A DNA stretch of 64,000 nt from Marispirochaeta sp. (GTDB lineage Bacteria > Spirochaetota > Spirochaetia > JC444 > Marispirochaetaceae). The notes under the pieces are model-generated. The model was not told the origin of the DNA and ran no database searches. It saw only the letters and a program-made list of their open reading frames with translations. Below, in pieces: positions 6,744 through 15,501 of the stretch. The number at the start of each line of letters is the position of its first letter. Positions within the stretch are counted from its first letter, which is position 1. A program made the position numbers and the translations under genes. The stretch lies in the NCBI GenBank assembly GCA_963676835.2, contig CAXXFF010000003.1, positions 160,001 to 224,000 on the forward strand, given 5' to 3'.

Positions 6744-6827
6744 GCGGCGGTGGTGAAATTGGTAGACACGCTAGCTTGAGGGGCTAGTGGCCGTTAGGCC
6801 GTGCTGGTTCAAGTCCAGTTCGCCGCA
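6744..6827 (+). tRNA. tRNA-Leu(GAG), CCA not encoded
   Basis: Acceptor GCGGCGG/TCGCCGC, D-loop TGGTAGAC, anticodon arm CTAGC-TTGAGGG-GCTAG, long variable arm, T-arm GGTTCAAGTCC. Confidence 0.95.
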
Positions 6828-6830
6828 CTA
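6775..6830 (+). repeat. attL core, 56-bp direct repeat (3' half of tRNA-Leu)
   Basis: Identical to 14963-15018; begins at the anticodon loop. Confidence 0.95.
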
Positions 6831-7034
6831 CCAAACTCCTTACACTGTAAGGATTTATAAAAGTGACGGAAAATTGTGCTAATGGGGTACGCTCCTTGAT
6901 GGTGGCCGAAAGGTGGCTGAAATATCAAGGAGGTAGCCCATGGCTACAAAAACACTTTTCCATTTTCCTACGATTGATATGCTGGAGAGCTTCGGGGGGG
7001 GTCCTAAGACTACCTATGTCCTCGGAGGTGAAGC

Positions 7035-7316
7035 ATGAATTTTCAAGATCAAATCGAAAAAGCAAACAACACTCTACTCGAAAACACGAGCAGTGCCGTT
7101 CTTCTTATCGGTAAGCTAAAAGTGATAGCCGATTGGCTTGATCGAGCTTCTCAAGATTACCCCAGACCAATGGAACATTTGGACGTGCATTTATCAGGCG
7201 CATCTGAGCTGATTAAAGGGGTTATTACTGATATCGATGCATTGTGGGATCGAAACGACTTTCAAATTCACATTGATAAATCCGACTTTCCCAAAGTGCT
7301 GGAGGTAGTAAAATGA
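7035..7316 (+). CDS. Hypothetical protein coupled to the integrase
   Basis: Strong RBS GGAGGTG; ATGA overlap with int. Confidence 0.6.
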   Translation: MNFQDQIEKANNTLLENTSSAVLLIGKLKVIADWLDRASQDYPRPMEHLDVHLSGASELIKGVITDIDALWDRNDFQIHIDKSDFPKVLEVVK

Positions 7317-8527
7317 CCTCCATAAACCTTGATACGGATTTTCACATCCTTAAAAAATGGCGATACAAAGACGGAAAGAGGACCAATAAATATGTTTACT
7401 ATGCGGCCTCTACAAATCCTGATTGGAACCATGAAAATCCCAAAGCTTGCCCCAAATATCTGATAATGAAAAGTACAGGGCAAACCAGTAAAACGGCAGC
7501 AAGGAAGGTTGCATTACACTGGATGCAAACGGGTGAGCTTGTGCCAGACAAACCGAAAGAAGCGAAGGACAGCATTTCATACCTTTCAACGGTTTTTGAA
7601 CCCGAGAGTACATATGTCAGGCGCCGTAGAAGCTTGGGAAAGTCAATGTCTTTGACCTACATCAATATCAGTAAAAGCTGGATTGATCGCTATTTTGTCG
7701 CCTATTGCAAGGAACGCGGGATCACCCGCATGGGTGAGATTACACGAAAATTCGTCGACGACTGGCAGCTATATCTTTATGAAAGCAAAGTTATAGGTCC
7801 GGTAACTGTGAACAAAGTACTCCAAGCGGTAAAGGTTGCGTTTGGACAGGCTGTAAGAGATGAATTGATACCATCTAACCCAGCCAGCTACATAGAGCCC
7901 GTAGAGGCAAGGGAACGGGAAAGAGGAATCTTTTCCCTGGAAGAGTATGAAAAGCTATTCGCAGAGCCTTGGGACGATCTGGAAGTATATTCAGCTTGTT
8001 ATCTGAGCGCCACGACTGCTATGCGTTTAGGGGAAGTGAGAGGGTTGTTGGTAAAGAACCTTGATCTTAAGAAAGGGGTGGTTCACATCAAAACAAGCTG
8101 GCAAGACAACGAAGGGATAAAGGATCCTAAGTGGAAAAGCTTCAGCCATGAAGATGGCCTTCCACTTGCCCCTGGAGTCATCAAGGTCTTATCAGAGATT
8201 GTACAGCATCATCGCTGGGGAGCAGATCCTGGACGCTTTGTATTCTGGGATATAGACTCACCTGACCGACCGATAGGAAAAGAAAAACTCACTAAGGGGC
8301 TCTATGCTGCAATGAAGCGGGTAGGAATAGACAGGAAAGCAAAGAACCTCACCTTTCACAGTCTACGACATACCATGATTACCACCCTGAAAGATGATCC
8401 GCGCCTACTTCGCTACTTCGCAAGGCATAAACAGGAACGGATTACAGAGCGATATATTCACCTTACCGAAGAAGACACAAATCGCTTTGAAAGCACTATT
8501 TCTGGCCGTTTTAGCTTCGCCAGCTAG
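7313..8527 (+). CDS. int: Tyrosine recombinase/integrase
   Basis: Catalytic set: AMRLGEVRGL (R), K, FHSLRH (HxxR), ARHK (H), TERYIH (Y); adjacent to attL. Confidence 0.93.
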   Translation: MTSINLDTDFHILKKWRYKDGKRTNKYVYYAASTNPDWNHENPKACPKYLIMKSTGQTSKTAARKVALHWMQTGELVPDKPKEAKDSISYLSTVFEPESTYVRRRRSLGKSMSLTYINISKSWIDRYFVAYCKERGITRMGEITRKFVDDWQLYLYESKVIGPVTVNKVLQAVKVAFGQAVRDELIPSNPASYIEPVEARERERGIFSLEEYEKLFAEPWDDLEVYSACYLSATTAMRLGEVRGLLVKNLDLKKGVVHIKTSWQDNEGIKDPKWKSFSHEDGLPLAPGVIKVLSEIVQHHRWGADPGRFVFWDIDSPDRPIGKEKLTKGLYAAMKRVGIDRKAKNLTFHSLRHTMITTLKDDPRLLRYFARHKQERITERYIHLTEEDTNRFESTISGRFSFAS

Positions 8528-8598
8528 TTATTTACTACTTAAAACCATACCCACGGGCCATTTACACATTGTAGGTGGCCCAACTGGTGGCTGGGCAT

Positions 8599-8650
8599 AA
8601 AAAAACCCCGACTACCTTAAGGGTGGATGATGAAACCCAGTAGCCGAGGA
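8599..8650 (-). terminator. Probable terminator of the element's minus-strand operon
   Basis: Minus strand: CCTCGGCTAC...GTAGTCGGGG followed by T8. Confidence 0.55.
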
Positions 8651-8681
8651 AGGCAACGCCTTTTTCCTTACCGGAGCCAGC

Positions 8682-9005
8682 TTACTTTTCTATTCTCCGT
8701 TCATACGCTCCACGGATCGCCTCTGTCAGAGCGATTGATCCGCGAGTCTCGATGAACTCCTGAGGTTTGCCGTCGATACGGTCATAGATATATTTGATTG
8801 CAGTTATATCTCCCGAGAGGGCAAGATCCCACAATTTAGCAGCCAAAGCTTGATTACGTGACATCATTTTCCGTTCACCGGTTTTAGGGTCAATGTACTC
8901 AACGTCTCGCTTCTTGGCATGTGATCCCAGAATGTCAGAAAGGCCCTTTCCCTTTCGGGGGCGGCCTTTTCGGTTTATGTTCTCGGGATGTTCTATAAAT
9001 CCCAT
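8682..9005 (-). CDS. Terminase small-subunit-like protein (DUF5681-like)
   Basis: NINRKGRPRK N-terminus and ALSGDITAIKYIYDRIDGKP motif seen in phage TerS-position proteins; ATG 9005 with AGGGGGG RBS. Confidence 0.65.
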   Translation of the reverse strand: MGFIEHPENINRKGRPRKGKGLSDILGSHAKKRDVEYIDPKTGERKMMSRNQALAAKLWDLALSGDITAIKYIYDRIDGKPQEFIETRGSIALTEAIRGAYERRIEK

Positions 9006-9129
9006 TGTTCCCCCCTTGTAAAACAAGGGCCCACCCCGAAGGGTGGGCAAAGTTATTAGTGCCGGTAAATCAGTATAAAAACCCGGCACTAAACATCCGG
9101 GTGAATAACTTCCGGATGTCATAAACAAT

Positions 9130-10269
9130 TTAGCTGGCGGCTGTCATCAGCCGGGAGAAAGCGGACCGCTTTGCGTATTCCAGCGCAAGGCGCTGCACGA
9201 TAACAATCCGGGTCTGGTACTTCGCAGCCAGGGTGTACGGGTCCATGAGCATTCCTGCATTCTTGCGAGCTCCGTATAGTATCCAACGGAAATTCCCGAA
9301 CCCTACAAAGGCGGTATCAGCACCGGATGTGCTGGGCGCCTGATTACATTCCACAATGGGGTATTTTCCGTGTATCGAGGTCCTGTTCTGACCATAGGGG
9401 TTCCAGAGATAGTTGCCTGCGGCATCGGTCTCTTTCTGAAGATTTACCGCCACATCGGGATGCATGACAAAGAGTCCATTTTCCCGTGCATAGGTCGGTA
9501 CATCGTGGTACAGGTCAATCAGATGCTCAACACTGATACTGCTGAATGCCGTGGATCCGGAACCGAACACAGTACTGTAGCTGATTGTCGGGGTAAAGAT
9601 TCCAGAGAATCCGCCATAAGTATCCGAGCCGTCACCATTCAGAATGGCGTTGTCGATTGCCTGACCTGCTTCCTCTGCGAACTGCTCAATCAAGAGGCCT
9701 GCAATGTCGGTTGCTGAGTCTTCAAGCAGCTCATTTGAGCAGATGGTGTAACAGTCAAGCCGGCGGGTATTCAGGGTAGCTTCCGAGAAGGTTGCATCTG
9801 TCTGGTCGATGTCATCCCCTTCCTGGTGCCAGGAAACTGAAATGCGGTCATCGAGGATAGGCACCTTCATGCTATCCCGATTCATCCGTATTTTGGTAAG
9901 GTAGGGAATCATTTCTGATGCCCCTTCAACGAATTTCATAAGCATGGTGTGGAACTCTGTTGGAACCAGATAACCTCCTGAAGCGTCGGTCCCTTCGACC
10001 ATGTTCGCCTTGGTATGCCACTGCTTAAGCTGGTAGTTTGCCTCGGGGCTGCCCTTCTGAGCCTTGTACATGGTCTGAAAATAGGTTGCCAGCTCCACGG
10101 TCTTCGCGACTTCTTCGGGATCCTCTGCATTGAAATTCTTATTCCTTACAATCCCCTGGAGCTCCAAGCCCCTTTCAGCGATAGACTCCCGCAGTTTTAC
10201 GCGGTATTCATTCAGGCTCAATTCGCCGTTTTTAAACTGTTCTGTAAAATCTGTTGCTTTATGGTCCAT
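9130..10269 (-). CDS. HK97-family major capsid protein
   Basis: About 90-aa N-terminal scaffold-like region, then GGYLVP, SNELLEDS, ILNGDG, DAAGNYLW, GFGNF. Confidence 0.92.
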   Translation of the reverse strand: MDHKATDFTEQFKNGELSLNEYRVKLRESIAERGLELQGIVRNKNFNAEDPEEVAKTVELATYFQTMYKAQKGSPEANYQLKQWHTKANMVEGTDASGGYLVPTEFHTMLMKFVEGASEMIPYLTKIRMNRDSMKVPILDDRISVSWHQEGDDIDQTDATFSEATLNTRRLDCYTICSNELLEDSATDIAGLLIEQFAEEAGQAIDNAILNGDGSDTYGGFSGIFTPTISYSTVFGSGSTAFSSISVEHLIDLYHDVPTYARENGLFVMHPDVAVNLQKETDAAGNYLWNPYGQNRTSIHGKYPIVECNQAPSTSGADTAFVGFGNFRWILYGARKNAGMLMDPYTLAAKYQTRIVIVQRLALEYAKRSAFSRLMTAAS

Positions 10270-10279
10270 AAATATCCTC

Positions 10280-10957
10280 TCAATCGTTTACTATTAAACA
10301 TCCGGGGGTTACGCGATTTTCCATACGTATCCGCCGTTCTAAAACATCGAGCTCCTTGAGTTCCTTCTCAAGCTCCTCAATCTCCTCGTAAAGCGCTTCC
10401 CTTTGTTTTGCTTCCCGGATAGCACGCTCCACGGCCTTCATGTATTCATCCGGATCGCTATCACCAAGTAGCAGCCCTTTAGCATGAACTACCGGCATAA
10501 GAAAATCTTTTGCGTCACGGATAACACGAGCCCCTTCATTTGCGGGGATTGAAACACAGGAAACTTCCAGTAAATCAGCTTCCGTCCATACCCTGGTTCC
10601 ATTCTGCTTTGTCCACTTCTTGGGCTGAAAGCCTACCGAAAAGCTGGTAAGGAAATCTTCTTCATACAGCTTTTCAAGCTCTTTCCCCAGGTCCGTGTCC
10701 GCAAACACAATGTCCAGATTCAATGATTTGGAAGTGATTTCACCTCCTACGGCCTTACCTACCGGGGGTATATTCTGGTCATGCCCCCAGAGAACAACAG
10801 GGTTATTCTTGAGATACCGCGGGAGTGATTTTGTCCAGGCGGTGGGAAGTATCACTTCACCATCCCGGTCAACGTCTGAAGTTGATGCAACGATCCGGAA
10901 AACCTTCTTGCTTCCCTTCTCGATTACGTCATCGACTCCAGCCTTAAACCTAATCAT
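10280..10957 (-). CDS. HK97-family prohead protease
   Basis: VDRDGEVI, VLWGHDQ, SFSVGF, LLEVSCVSIPAN; ATG 10957 with GAGGAGGA RBS. Confidence 0.92.
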   Translation of the reverse strand: MIRFKAGVDDVIEKGSKKVFRIVASTSDVDRDGEVILPTAWTKSLPRYLKNNPVVLWGHDQNIPPVGKAVGGEITSKSLNLDIVFADTDLGKELEKLYEEDFLTSFSVGFQPKKWTKQNGTRVWTEADLLEVSCVSIPANEGARVIRDAKDFLMPVVHAKGLLLGDSDPDEYMKAVERAIREAKQREALYEEIEELEKELKELDVLERRIRMENRVTPGCLIVND

Positions 10958-11185
10958 TTGTCCTCCTCGCGAATCGTGCCCTTTACGCCTTCCTGCCTGA
11001 TTTACATCCCGATTTACGCCATTACTGACTGAGCGGTTAACGACTGAGCAGACAACCCAGACTGATGACCCTTTTCGCATAATACTATACACACGTATAG
11101 TTATAATATAACAATTAGCTATTTACGCTAATAGATCCCTATGTACTGTAACGATTTAACCGCTACAGGTGGCCACCAAGGTGGC

Positions 11186-13108
11186 TCAAGTATTAACAAC
11201 CGACTTACTGTCAATTAACAACTCACCGTTTTTTGTCATTTTGAAAAGCGCTTTTCCCACTTCATTGCCATTCAAATCAATATGGAAATGGTAAGTTCCG
11301 CCTGTTGCCGTTTTCGCCTGGTCTTCGTTCTGGATGGAAACGCGCTCCCCGGAGGCAACCCCGATCATGTATGAATCATCCCGGTAGCCTTCCGGGACTG
11401 TGAAGTCACCGCCAGATTTATAACTGGGAACCGGGGTGCTCTGAATGGCGGCAACCTGTGCAGCACCTATCCCTGCAGCGGCTACCGACAAACCTATGCC
11501 AGCAAACCCGCCAGGGTCGGCAAGGAAGCCGATAATGGCCGCAGCTGTATCAACTGTCGCCTGAAGCGTTCCCAGGGCCTTGGCGCGCTCTGACTGCTTT
11601 CTGGCGATCTCTTTTTTCTTGTTTTCAAGGCGTTCCTCTGCAGCTTCCCTTTCGGCTGTCCCTTCCTTGGTCGCTTCAACTTCTGCCTTCAGGCGGTTAA
11701 GCTCTTCCTGCTCTGCATTTGAGGTTATGGTGTTCAGGGATCCGAAAAAGCTTCCCGCCATGCCTGACAGAGTGCTGTAGTAAAATTCCATTTCAGAATG
11801 CCGTTCAGCTAGTATCCGCGCTTCTTCAGCGGCGACAGCTTCGGCAGCGGATATCTGCTCAAGCCTCCACTGTTCAATCCAGTCAGATTTCTGGGACCAA
11901 AAATTCATCTCTGTATCAGCCAGCGATTGAGTGGCATTCTTCATTTGGACAAGCTTTTCGTTTAGCTCCTCGAGTACCGCTCGCACTTTTGGGCCGTCTT
12001 CAAATGATTCAAATAATTTTATTTCCTGCTCAAGTGCTTTTTGAGCTCCCTCTGCCGTACGCGCATAGGCCTCTTCCAGGGCATCAAGATTAGCCTGTCG
12101 CTGGGCCTCTTTGGCAGCTTTGTCCGCTTCCTGAGCCGCAAGTACTTCAGCTGCAGCTCGTTGCTGTGCTGATGCAACAGCAGCATAATCATCCGAAATA
12201 GCAAGCTGTGCCTGGCGGCTTCTCATTTCGGCAAGACGCTGCTCTTCTTCGCGGAGCTGTCTGTTGACGTTTATCCCCCGCATCTTCTGGGTATTAAGCT
12301 CGGCAATGCGCATTACCTGCCGCTCAATTGCAGTTGTGAGTGTTGTTGTATCATCAGCTTCGCCTGTAAGGATCTTCTGCAGGGCCATTTCACCAGCGAG
12401 AAGGTTGTTTACCTCGGTAAGCATTTCGGTAAAAGCTCTCCGGAGAGGAGTCATACCCCGGGCTACATACTGGCCAATAGCCTCCTGGGTATCCCCGATG
12501 GTGTTCTGGTACTGCAGGTAAGCTCCGGAGGCAGTATTTGCTTCCTCCTGGGCTACCAGGAAAGCGGCAGCAAGCTGACGCTCTGCAATAGCAGCTTTCT
12601 CTGTTTCGGTGGCTGCATTTTTTACAGCAGGCATGTACCGGTTCATCATGTCGTAATTGCCCTGCTGGGCATTTACCGTTGCTTTTATCGCTGCTTGAAG
12701 ATCGACGCCGAAGGCCTTTGACAGCCCTATGGCGTCCTTGGTTGCCTGCTTGGCGGCTTCAGCCGAGAGTCCGGCAGAAACAGCATACTGCTGCAGTTGG
12801 ATTGAAGCTTCATCGCCGACTGTGGTTATCCCCTGCAGTTCTGAGGCAAAATCCTGCATAGCTCCAGAGACTGCTGCCGAATACTTTCCAGTAGCCCGGA
12901 GTGATGCATTCAAAAGGGCAACACTTTTCTCCTGAACAAAGAAGGCTTGTTCAGCTTTCGCCAGCTGCTTAGTGACTGAGACAAGCGCAGCGCCTGCGGC
13001 GGCGATACCGGTAGTCATTAAGGCTACGCTTTTCATGTAGTCTTTGACGCTTTTCTGTGATTTCTTTGTCTCTGTTAAAATATCAACTTGAACTGTATCT
13101 TTTGCCAT
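11186..13108 (-). CDS. Phage tail tape-measure-like protein (640 aa)
   Basis: Ala/Glu/Gln-rich helical protein; N-terminal QDFASELQGITTVGDE; hydrophobic stretch near C-terminus followed by SYKSGG...GERV. Confidence 0.8.
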   Translation of the reverse strand: MAKDTVQVDILTETKKSQKSVKDYMKSVALMTTGIAAAGAALVSVTKQLAKAEQAFFVQEKSVALLNASLRATGKYSAAVSGAMQDFASELQGITTVGDEASIQLQQYAVSAGLSAEAAKQATKDAIGLSKAFGVDLQAAIKATVNAQQGNYDMMNRYMPAVKNAATETEKAAIAERQLAAAFLVAQEEANTASGAYLQYQNTIGDTQEAIGQYVARGMTPLRRAFTEMLTEVNNLLAGEMALQKILTGEADDTTTLTTAIERQVMRIAELNTQKMRGINVNRQLREEEQRLAEMRSRQAQLAISDDYAAVASAQQRAAAEVLAAQEADKAAKEAQRQANLDALEEAYARTAEGAQKALEQEIKLFESFEDGPKVRAVLEELNEKLVQMKNATQSLADTEMNFWSQKSDWIEQWRLEQISAAEAVAAEEARILAERHSEMEFYYSTLSGMAGSFFGSLNTITSNAEQEELNRLKAEVEATKEGTAEREAAEERLENKKKEIARKQSERAKALGTLQATVDTAAAIIGFLADPGGFAGIGLSVAAAGIGAAQVAAIQSTPVPSYKSGGDFTVPEGYRDDSYMIGVASGERVSIQNEDQAKTATGGTYHFHIDLNGNEVGKALFKMTKNGELLIDSKSVVNT

Positions 13109-13136
13109 AATTAGGCTCCTACTCTAGTGATGGTCA

Positions 13137-13613
13137 CTACCCTGCAAGTACTTGCGTGCGATTGGTGGCCGTGGTGGTGGCTATTTTCCGATGAAATGCC
13201 AATTTTTCCCTGTAATACACCCCCCAGGTCTCTTTGTTGGAATCGTCCGGAGCTGCATTGAATGATAAATGTTCATAATAGGGAAATTCACAGGAGGGGC
13301 AGCAATCTTCAAATCCTTGACGATACTGGAAGATTTTTCCGCATGCTGGACATTTCACCTGAGTGCCAGGGTGCTGATACCGGACTACGTTTTTCTGTTT
13401 GAAAAAGATTTTCTTTTCTTGAGCAGCCTCAAAAACTTCTTTAACAGAAACGACCTTGTATCGATTGCTATGGTGTTCAATCAGGGAGTCTTTCAAGCTA
13501 TCACGCTCAGAGTCGGTGATAGTAATTATGCGGTCCCGAATTTCTGCCATCGAAAGGCGAATAGTATTCGGGTAATATTCTTTAAGATATTCTAGAAATT
13601 CCTTGCTCGTCAT
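13137..13613 (-). CDS. Zinc-ribbon protein, possibly a replication accessory factor
   Basis: CPACGK...CCPSCEF; directly follows and overlaps the initiator gene. Confidence 0.55.
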   Translation of the reverse strand: MTSKEFLEYLKEYYPNTIRLSMAEIRDRIITITDSERDSLKDSLIEHHSNRYKVVSVKEVFEAAQEKKIFFKQKNVVRYQHPGTQVKCPACGKIFQYRQGFEDCCPSCEFPYYEHLSFNAAPDDSNKETWGVYYREKLAFHRKIATTTATNRTQVLAG

Positions 13614-14094
13614 CGCTCCCCTCCCCAGGTGATCGACTATTGTTCATAAGATCATCAATTGAAAAATCTTCTCCGCCCCATTGTTGAGGGGTACTGTTAT
13701 TGGTACCTGTTCCCTGGTAATGTTCGGGCGTATCCATTACGCTCCCAGGGTGACACTCTTTCGCCCCGGTAGTGTCATCGTTACGCAAGGGGGGTGTCAT
13801 CATTACGCGCCCCGGTATGTAATAATCATTTGACCGGTTATATTGTTTACCAGTTTTCCCGGTAGCTAATCGTTGTCTAACCTTAATTTCACCCTTTTCT
13901 TCAAGACTTCTTATGCAGCGCTGCACAGTTCGTCTGCTCAGCTTGGTAATCTTTACAAGCGATTCTATTCCAGGAAAACACTCTCCTTGCTTATTGGCGT
14001 AGCGTAATAATCCGATCAAAACGAGAGTTTCACTCGAGCTCAAAGCCGCATTTTCCATCAGTGCATTCGGCACTACGAAATACCTACCTGACAC
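13582..14094 (-). CDS. HTH replication initiator (lambda-O/DnaD-like N-terminus)
   Basis: LSSSETLVLIGLLRYANKQGECFPGIESLVKITKLSRRTVQRCIRSLEEKG; internal 22-bp iterons; likely GTG start 14094 just after the xis stop, GGAG RBS. Confidence 0.75.
   Translation of the reverse strand: MSGRYFVVPNALMENAALSSSETLVLIGLLRYANKQGECFPGIESLVKITKLSRRTVQRCIRSLEEKGEIKVRQRLATGKTGKQYNRSNDYYIPGRVMMTPPLRNDDTTGAKECHPGSVMDTPEHYQGTGTNNSTPQQWGGEDFSIDDLMNNSRSPGEGSDDEQGISRIS
13728..13815. repeat. Four 22-bp iteron-like direct repeats
   Basis: Units start at 13728, 13750, 13772, 13794; core GTGTCATCRTTACGC. Confidence 0.75.
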
Positions 14095-14095
14095 A

Positions 14096-14287
14096 TCAAA
14101 CTTTCTCCACGCGGCCACGGCCCAAGAGCCACTCTTCAAGCTCCTGAACATCAAATACAACCCGTCTACCCCATTTGTAAAATGGAACGGTTTTCGCGCT
14201 GGTCGCATTCCAGAAAAATTGTTTACTGAGGCCGTAACGAGTTACAGCCTCAGAGACACTGATCAATTCTTTTCCCTGGATCTGCAT
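14096..14287 (-). CDS. Excisionase/AlpA-like HTH protein
   Basis: ISVSEAVTRYGLSKQFF...VPFYKWGRRVVFDVQELEEWL. Confidence 0.8.
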   Translation of the reverse strand: MQIQGKELISVSEAVTRYGLSKQFFWNATSAKTVPFYKWGRRVVFDVQELEEWLLGRGRVEKV

Positions 14288-14290
14288 GGC

Positions 14291-14728
14291 TTAATCCTTC
14301 CTCACCAGCTTCCTTGGGTCCATTAAGCCTTCTGGCAGATTCTGGTCCATTGTTTTAACTAATTCATAATCAAAACCAAAATAATCACAGGTAGACATAA
14401 GTTCTTGCTTGTAAGTCCCCTCTATTTCGGTGGAAATCTTTTCCCCAAAAGACGGATCTTCGTCACGTTTTAGCTCCCAAAGCAGTACAGCTCTGTCAGT
14501 GCTGAAATATCGGTAATCAGTGTCTTTCCCTCCTGGGTTATATGGAGCCATCAATCGACGCCATGTCATAATTGCTGCTGTCTGAATTATCTGTTTCCAG
14601 GTTTCTTTTGTGATCATATCCCTAATGAACTGAGCTTCAGAAAGATCATTATCTGAAGCAAGCTTATTGAGCCATTCACACTGACGTTCTGTAAGGTAGA
14701 AATTTTTCAGCTTGTCTTTCTTTTCCAT
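14291..14728 (-). CDS. Putative regulator with ribbon-helix-helix-like N-terminus
   Basis: KNFYLTERQCEWLNKLASDNDLSEAQFIRDMI; ATG 14728 with GAGGGGAG RBS. Confidence 0.6.
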   Translation of the reverse strand: MEKKDKLKNFYLTERQCEWLNKLASDNDLSEAQFIRDMITKETWKQIIQTAAIMTWRRLMAPYNPGGKDTDYRYFSTDRAVLLWELKRDEDPSFGEKISTEIEGTYKQELMSTCDYFGFDYELVKTMDQNLPEGLMDPRKLVRKD

Positions 14729-14747
14729 TGCACTCCCCTCTTTTAAT

Positions 14748-14789
14748 AAGATACCGCTCAATTCTTTATATGTCAATCTTATTCTTTAT
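14748..14789 (-). promoter_or_regulatory. Sigma-70 promoter of the element operon with flanking direct repeats
   Basis: Minus strand TTGACA (14776-14771), 17 bp, TATCTT (14753-14748); ATAAAGAAT repeated on both sides of the -35. Confidence 0.65.
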
Positions 14790-14962
14790 GTTTGATGTTT
14801 TATAAAGATTTTGTATTGGTGGCCAAAAGGTGGCCGGGGTGGTGGCTGTTTTTTATTAGGTAAAAAAGAGTAAACATTAACAATTTGCGTAATTCTTTGT
14901 TATGTGGTATATTATAAAAACTAATACAGCCAACTAAAGGCTATTAAAGGCAGCATTATTAC

Positions 14963-15018
14963 CTTGAGGGGCTAGTGGCCGTTAGGCCGTGCTGGTTCAA
15001 GTCCAGTTCGCCGCACTA
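14963..15018 (+). repeat. attR core, 56-bp direct repeat
   Basis: Identical to 6775-6830. Confidence 0.95.
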
Positions 15019-15019
15019 T

Positions 15020-15059
15020 AAAAAGACCATTCGACTTTTGTCGGATGGTCTTTTTTTTT
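15020..15059 (+). terminator. Rho-independent terminator (original tRNA terminator)
   Basis: AAAAAGACCATTCGAC-tttt-GTCGGATGGTCTTTTTTTTT. Confidence 0.85.
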
Positions 15060-15392
15060 GGCGCGAACTGGACTTGAATAGAGTGAGCGCCGACCGATCA
15101 GGGAGGAAAAGCAGGCATGGATGCCTGCGGCAGCGAACGGCAGGGGCCCGGAAGGAGGAAACAGGATGTTTCCGACTGGAGGGCAAGTCCAGCCCTCAGA
15201 CTAAGATCAACTTCCAAACCCAGATGGTCTTTTTTTTCTGCGCGAACTGGACTTGAAACGGAGTTTCGGCGCGACTGAATAAGGAGCGCAAATCGACAGG
15301 ACGTCGATTTAGAAACGCAGGCAGCCTGCAGGGAGGAGACACGATGTCGACGACCGGAAGGCAAGGCCAGCCCCCAGAGTAAGATCAACTTC
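15046..15392. repeat. Two tandem ~179-bp tRNA-linked repeat units
   Basis: Shared ATGGTC-T-tract-GCGCGAACTGGACTTGAA (15061, 15240) and CAAG.CCAGCCC..AGA.TAAGATCAACTTC ends. Confidence 0.75.
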
Positions 15393-15501
15393 AAGAAACA
15401 GAGTCTCTTTATTTATTATCTTAAACCTGCAATAATTATTTGTCTCAGGCACATGTTCCTGAAACCGACCGGCTTATGTGCACGAAATCGGGAGTAGAAA
15501 T

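Follow-up and report, generated by a model that had tools for sequence, protein, structure and literature searches.

The window analysed here is a 64,000-nucleotide stretch of the genome of Marispirochaeta sp., a spirochaete, and the element in question is an 8.2-kb insertion seated in its tRNA-Leu(GAG) gene (6744..6828, plus strand, ARAGORN). A 56-bp exact direct repeat constitutes the attachment (att) sites: it copies the 3' part of the tRNA gene, the attL core (6775-6830, plus strand) beginning in the anticodon loop and the attR core lying at 14963-15018 (plus strand). Between them, the plus strand carries a 93-aa open reading frame (ORF) and a tyrosine integrase gene, and the minus strand eight co-oriented genes, which encode a ribbon-helix-helix (RHH)-like regulator, a xis-like protein, a replication initiator, a Zn-ribbon protein, a tail tape-measure protein (TMP), a protease, a major capsid protein (MCP) and a terminase small subunit (TerS). 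Coding density is 87%, and all ORFs and both att arms are intact. As a whole, it is a delimited and undamaged integrative element that brings an integrase, an excisionase-like protein and an initiator of its own.

The integrase (404 aa; 7313..8527, plus strand) matches PF00589 (E 1e-15), PF13102 and phrog_1 (E 1e-37); together with the exact repeat, this confirms the perfect att repeats and intact integrase announced by the original prediction, which had been made from the sequence alone. Its start is overlapped by the 93-aa ORF (7035..7316, plus strand), missed in that prediction and belonging to no Pfam or PHROGs family. On the minus strand, the excisionase-like HTH_17 protein (14096..14287) matches PF12728 (E 2e-6) and phrog_66, and the O/DnaD-like (HTH_36) initiator (13582..14208) matches PF13730 (E 2e-14) and phrog_270. 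The true start of the initiator is probably downstream of 14208, and two 15-bp iteron-like repeats are found within its gene, at 13772 and 13794. The regulator announced as RHH is present as an ORF (14291..14776, minus strand), its family assignment being limited to weak Pfam matches (NikA and RHH_7, E 0.05-0.08). Adjacent to the replication gene, the Zn-ribbon (CxxC...CxxC) protein (13137..13613, minus strand) has strong matches in 3 of 401 class genomes, source genome included, so that the family is narrow among the genomes searched. Its alignment retrieved no relatives from viral contigs, and the Atlas matches for this protein and for the 93-aa ORF, all below 0.9, are leads only.

The four particle genes follow on the minus strand. 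The HK97-type MCP (379 aa; 9130..10269) has a short (91-aa) N-terminal delta region and matches PF05065 over profile positions 1-276 of 280 (E 2.5e-48), as well as HK97-family MCPs of the PDB (E 3e-11). Its structure model, built from a 9-row alignment, had a pLDDT of 46.5 and was unusable. The S78 prohead protease (225 aa; 10280..10957; PF04586 E 5e-11, phrog_80, no PDB sequence match) most likely starts at 10957 and not at 11092, where the longest ORF begins. Its His59 and Ser107, presumably the catalytic residues, are invariant in 7/7 aligned sequences. The TMP (640 aa; 11186..13108) has no Pfam match and no tblastn match among GenBank phages, and is 48% identical over 477 aa to a 626-aa protein of the siphophage contig L089. 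Two small ORFs in tail-chaperone position separate this homologue, a weak match to TMP PHROGs, from the major tail protein that precedes them; as it sits where a complete siphophage tail operon has its tape measure, the 640-aa protein is read as a TMP. Finally, the DUF5681 protein (8682..9005; PF18932 E 1e-7), most likely 107 aa long with a start at 9005, gave a structure model with a pLDDT of 89.6, which found no match in the PDB and, in BFVD, DUF5681 proteins or weak TerS matches only (best named TerS, E 0.009). Its homologues lie upstream of a terminase large subunit (TerL) gene in 8/8 loci, seven directly and one with an intervening ORF. The predicted function of the DUF5681 protein as TerS is well supported by this position; TerS and TerL are a textbook pair.

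Short intergenic gaps had been announced; the corrected protease start leaves a 229-bp gap between TMP and protease genes. This gap (10958-11185) is AT-rich with short direct repeats, and the gap between MCP and TerS genes (9006-9129) is hairpin-rich; each is a candidate late promoter, terminator or packaging site. Promoter and terminator scans gave no excess over shuffled sequence.

No portal, TerL, head-tail connector or adaptor, or other tail gene was found in the element with Pfam, PHROGs and 46 TerL, portal, adaptor and tail queries drawn from 15 phage loci (genome cut-off E 0.01; control loci matched strongly). The single match to these queries, 30 aa long (E 0.014), fell inside int and is not a credible remnant. 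The announced gene set, from integrase, xis and initiator to TMP, S78 protease, HK97 capsid and TerS, with neither portal, TerL nor tail, and the announced lack of gene remnants are thus borne out. The idea that portal, TerL, connectors and tail would be borrowed from a helper phage is supported, and so is the announced spirochaete host, which is of the class Spirochaetia. We consider it likely, from gene content and homology, that the element is a satellite of a temperate siphophage, similar to the phage-inducible chromosomal islands (PICIs), with helper-borrowed parts.

We compared the tRNA-Leu(GAG) site in five genomes of the same genus (G401-G405). The original prediction stated that close relatives carrying a matching full prophage at this site would speak against a satellite; none of the five does so in the DNA fetched, and two (G403 and G405) hold a sister element. 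That of G403 is complete, 8.0 kb long, and shares the integrase (about 62-65%), the excisionase-like protein (81%), the initiator (47%) and the Zn-ribbon protein (about 44-45%). In place of TMP, protease, MCP and TerS, it carries a KAP NTPase and an MCP of phrog_267 that shows no similarity to the window MCP, as well as two further ORFs, one of 103 aa and one scaffold-like. Portal, TerL and tail genes were not found in it. In G405, where the middle of the element is unassembled, both att arms are present, together with the scaffold-MCP module seen in G403; the Zn-ribbon protein and RHH-like regulator of G405 match those of the window at 40% and 33%, respectively. A different island (integrase 29%, primase, ClpP-type protease) occupies the site in G402, and the site appears empty in G401 and G404. 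Judging from these sequences, the structural block is an exchangeable module, sisters on the same backbone carrying a scaffold and an unrelated capsid protein. The comparison suggests that these satellites swap parts to switch helper phages.

The KAP NTPase of the G403 sister is also what an island devoted to interference might carry, as this family is often tied to phage exclusion. In such an island, MCP, TMP and TerS would be dominant-negative poisons of phage assembly, and spread would be rare or take place in unmodified helper particles. Related islands of the genus whose cargo is limited to a ClpP-type protease and a coiled-coil protein point the same way. So does the PICI EcCICFT073, in which deletion of the capsid gene left interference in place, so that the capsid gene of a PICI may serve another purpose than the one expected (PMC6092414). 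We nevertheless hold this explanation to be unlikely: all genes are full length, the predicted protease active site is intact, the TMP is as long as its phage homologue (640 versus 626 aa), and a complete TerS is best explained by self-packaging.

All four particle genes of the element have recognisable homologues in one phage lineage. Contig L399 has homologues of TerS (62% to that of the window), protease (42%) and MCP (32%), besides a Terminase_3 TerL and a portal fused to MuF. The same head module is present in L400, L073, L306 and L170, and in the L073 and L306 contigs it is followed by a tail operon leading to a TMP of the same family as that of the window. The order in this donor lineage is TerS(DUF5681)-TerL-portal/MuF-S78 protease-HK97 capsid, then, further on, tail tube-TMP. 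Neither deletion nor circular permutation of it could yield the arrangement of the element, TMP-protease-MCP-TerS. Among the 55 of 160 MCP-homologue loci with at least 3.5 kb of upstream DNA, a portal gene is found within 5 kb in 53, a TMP gene in none, and the exact order of the element was absent from every other locus fetched. Single-protein locus scans with the MCP, and likewise with TerS alone, gave no relatives. In phages L073, L306, L399 and L400, a 336-375-aa ORF with similar N-termini, glycosyltransferase-like by inspection, directly follows the capsid gene.

This gene order bears on a second explanation, a decayed prophage at tRNA-Leu that would have lost its TerL, portal, connector, tail and lysis genes. 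The homologues of all four particle genes in full phages would fit such an origin, as would the presence elsewhere in the genome of a prophage-like early region without structural genes, and the fact that the exact gene set was met only once. The order, though, would require at least two relocations, no remnant was detected by the 46 queries, and att arms and ORFs are intact. In particular, decay is disfavoured by the complete, like-sized sister of G403, at a site where none of the five same-genus genomes has a full prophage and where G405 has a second, partly assembled sister. We therefore regard it as very unlikely, and the original preference for a satellite over a decayed prophage is supported by gene order, lack of remnants, sister element and intact ORFs. 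As for a portal-less, tail-less HK97 'twilight' particle that would package or deliver DNA helper-free, it is highly improbable, since those genomes have no terminase genes whereas the element has a TerS whose homologues precede TerL, a canonical siphophage TMP, a PF05065 MCP that is not encapsulin-like, and an initiator that is O-like and not HUH.

The satellite reading is best judged against the known satellite classes. The PICI core, as modelled in SatelliteFinder, comprises integrase, replication, capsid and TerS genes without portal, a protease being occasional (PMC10085698), and PICIs with capsid and TerS include EcCICFT073 and PmCI172 (PMC6092414). The element resembles them as a small att-bounded island with an integrase, a replication module, a capsid homologue, a TerS at the operon end and a protease, but no portal; the earlier statement that its gene set matches neither PICIs nor capsid-forming PICIs (cf-PICIs) was thus overstated, all the more as satellite TMPs are already published. 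A further likeness lies in the delta domain, which in Ccm, the capsid homologue of SaPIbov5, is shorter than in related phage capsids (PMC8569155). The element differs from PICIs by its spirochaete host and by its TMP, and appears to differ from them by its O/DnaD-like initiator, which has iteron-like repeats and stands in the place of a primase-replicase, and by its regulators (RHH-like, a weak match, and HTH_17, with no AlpA or Stl match). Strict PICI membership fails on the TMP, as the SatelliteFinder model 'forbids' tail genes (PMC10085698).

EPIPs of Mycolicibacterium aichiense, of about 8-11 kb, have TerS, MCP and TMP, with no other tail genes listed; by description, they also have a serine integrase, a scaffold, a head-to-tail adaptor and a stopper (PMC12822802), whereas the element, with its tyrosine integrase and S78 protease, lacks connector genes. 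The PICI-like elements (PLEs) of Vibrio cholerae encode a TMP and provide an experimental precedent for chimeric tails, but they use the helper capsid protein and also encode a tail-assembly chaperone (TAC) and BhuB (PMC12987554), while capsid and protease of the element are its own, and no TAC was recognised in it. cf-PICIs share with it an HK97 capsid, a protease and a TerS (PMC10085698), and some have tmp (PMC12987554); they also encode portal, TerL and head-tail connectors (PMC10085698), all three lacking in the element. Judging from gene content, the element most likely works like a PICI with capsid and TerS, and not like a cf-PICI, EPIP or PLE. Satellite TMPs are already known from PLEs, EPIPs (PMC12822802) and some cf-PICIs (PMC12987554). 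What is new is the spirochaete host, the swapping of capsid type on one backbone, and three extra arm-like repeats at internal module junctions. No paper on spirochaete satellites was found in the openly accessible literature, and TMP-bearing satellites would thereby be extended to spirochaetes.

How might such a PICI-like satellite operate? Upon infection by a helper, or its induction, the element would excise at the tRNA-Leu att site and replicate from the iterons inside the initiator gene, and the TMP-protease-MCP-TerS genes would be expressed. Its own TerS would recognise the packaging site of the element and recruit the helper TerL. The short-delta MCP, cut by the protease of the element, would assemble around the helper portal into a small head, made of this protein only or of a mixture with that of the helper; indeed, by analogy with Ccm, it may co-assemble with the helper capsid rather than build a whole shell. 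The TMP would replace that of the helper, giving a chimeric tail of about 100 nm made of helper tube and tip proteins, as in PLE11, for which the role of the TMP in chimeric tails has been shown (PMC12987554). This length follows from the 1.6 angstrom of tail per TMP residue cited in the same paper, applied to 640 aa, and is nearly that given by the 626-aa phage homologue, so that the TMP is not a length-reducing device. The scaffold and unrelated capsid protein of the sister elements would suit another helper. The occurrence of two unrelated capsid systems on a single backbone at a single att site, with or without TMP, offers a natural comparison, and makes two questions testable, namely why satellites retain a TMP of their own and by what means they pass from one helper to another.

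The window MCP forms with seven proteins (P0002-P0008) a clade supported at 100/100. The conserved core is preceded by 83-114 residues in the 7 complete clade members, versus 151-161 in three unfused phage MCPs of the sister clade. This parallels the difference between Ccm (87 residues before the core) and the phi12 capsid protein (128; PMC8569155).

Several observations weigh against a helper-dependent satellite assembled in this way. First, no helper prophage was found in the 97%-complete source genome, where the original prediction had proposed to look for one and which was searched with the 46 queries, PF04860, PF03354 and phrog_2; the identity of the helper is consequently drawn from homology alone. 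A phrog_2 match (E 7e-4) in this genome, to a 333-aa host ORF that we take to be PhoH-like, was not accepted as TerL. Second, no TAC gene was recognised in the element with the L073 and L089 queries, unlike in PLEs. Third, no second copy of the exact structural module with flanking DNA was found. The MCP argument has its own weaknesses: the grouping with the donor clade as sister is supported at only 91/92, the P0002-P0008 proteins, which come without genomic context, could belong to ordinary phages, and the MCPs of three full phages (L173, L175 and L178) are also short, with 76-79 aa before the core, so that delta length alone is not diagnostic of a satellite. Lastly, the phage with the closest TMP, L089, has an SPP1-type head, while the capsid donors have heads of the HK97 type, and the TMP may therefore have come from a separate donor.

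We also examined short repeats that might relate to module exchange. A GGTGGC-N5-GGTGGC tandem repeat lies on the attL side (6901..6917), at the same place in G403 and G405, and three tandem GGTGGC copies on the attR side (14818..14846) are kept in both. Because of this conservation, and because 5 of the 12 att-bounded islands examined have a tandem hexamer of their own at both ends, these repeats are probably integrase arm sites. Three further arm-like repeats are internal: J1 (8574..8591), at the junction of int and structural module, 47 bp past the int stop; J2 (11168..11185), which abuts the TMP stop codon at 1 bp; and J3 (13164..13181), in the last codons of the Zn-ribbon gene, 27 bp before its stop, with a 24-bp match to the attR arm at 92%. 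Overall, the 4.43-Mb genome has 8 copies of GGTGGC-N5/6-GGTGGC, 6 of them inside the element and all of these on the plus strand, and none of 300 Markov simulations of the element gave even one such pair. The closeness of the internal pairs to gene 3' ends has a chance probability of about 0.002, in a test picked after the pairs were seen. J1 and J2 flank the protease-MCP-TerS genes, and J2 and J3 the TMP gene. Similarity to G403 stops at J1, just past the motif, and at J3, and G403 retains single GGTGGC half-sites there; in a sliding DNA identity profile, the break is moderate at J1 and weak at J3. In G403, an arm-like 9-mer (expected 0.005) separates the capsid module from the cargo.

One reading of these repeats is a cassette array, in which TMP, protease-capsid-TerS or scaffold-capsid modules bounded by arm repeats would be gained or exchanged by recombination at these repeats or guided by them, allowing helper switching in an integron-like manner. 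We find it rather doubtful: no convincing core-like site was found near the internal repeats, G405 has no motif at the equivalent of J3, J3 lies inside coding sequence, and none of the four other islands whose two ends share a tandem repeat has an internal pair. Near J3, one core-like sequence reached p 0.045 in a set of 18 comparisons and was not accepted. Exchange may actively take place at the internal repeats; alternatively, they may be conserved linkers of homology, or scars left by tandem accretion at the att site. If they are exchange points, they would represent an undescribed route for the capture of virion genes by satellites; we found no paper on capsid cassettes bounded by arm repeats in the openly accessible literature.

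The source genome (G000) has a second TMP island, bounded by a 48-bp tRNA-Val repeat (G000:C1:136389-147727, L049; 11.3 kb), so that the same cell also holds a third capsid type. Besides an integrase, a xis and a helicase, this island encodes a 688-aa TMP, a lambda-E type MCP and a ClpP-type protease, together with two small ORFs in the head region and a coiled-coil ORF. Neither a portal nor a TerL or tail gene was found in it, and its tandem repeat is restricted to its two ends. Its TMP, 27% to that of the window and placed between replication and head genes, was found in none of the five same-genus genomes, and its MCP in 1 of 301 class genomes, the source genome itself. Another TMP, P0065 (751 aa, encoded on an 8.8-kb contig), is 41% to that of the window, whereas its N-terminus is 54% like that of the tRNA-Val island. 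Comparison of the two islands implies two separate origins of the replication-TMP-head layout within a single genome, each with its own capsid type. More broadly, most of the 110 TMP-anchored loci look like ordinary tail operons on inspection of ORF maps, except for five loci (four elements) that are candidate TMP-bearing satellites: L059/L060 (TerS, HK97 MCP and TMP, with a partial tRNA at the end), L072 (TerS, S49-type protease, TMP and att), L084 (protease, TMP and att) and L075 (MCP, head closure and TMP, beside tmRNA). Neither portal nor tail tube was detected in these candidates, which come from metagenome-assembled genomes titled Phycisphaerae, Pirellulales, Clostridia and Bythopirellula.

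Other islands were met in the course of these searches. In G402, a TerL match was rejected as a prophage signal, as it sits in a 9.8-kb island at tRNA-Pro (L390, 45-bp repeat) with an integrase, a xis, an 83-aa ORF and a full TerL, and no recognised capsid, portal or tail gene. G402, G403 and G405 have tRNA-linked islands (L292, L295 and L391) in which a primase and a ClpP-type head protease occur without a capsid gene; in two of them, there is also a coiled-coil ORF similar to that of the tRNA-Val island. In the source genome, labels given by ORF inspection indicate a prophage-like early region at tRNA-Thr (G000:C1 ~91600-103800; integrase, repressor-like helix-turn-helix and methylase-like ORFs), with an adjoining insertion sequence (IS)-like element and neither att duplicate nor structural genes. 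Two tRNA-bounded islands (G000:C1:449339-460788 and C2:1853406-1881272), labelled in the same way, contain restriction-modification-like genes for one, and sugar-catabolism genes with IS-like ORFs for the other. Finally, just past attR, positions 15044-15414 of the window contain repeats resembling repetitive extragenic palindromes (91-bp and 35-bp, with a spacing of about 178 bp), which include an inverted copy of the tRNA T-arm sequence and have similar copies in same-genus genomes.

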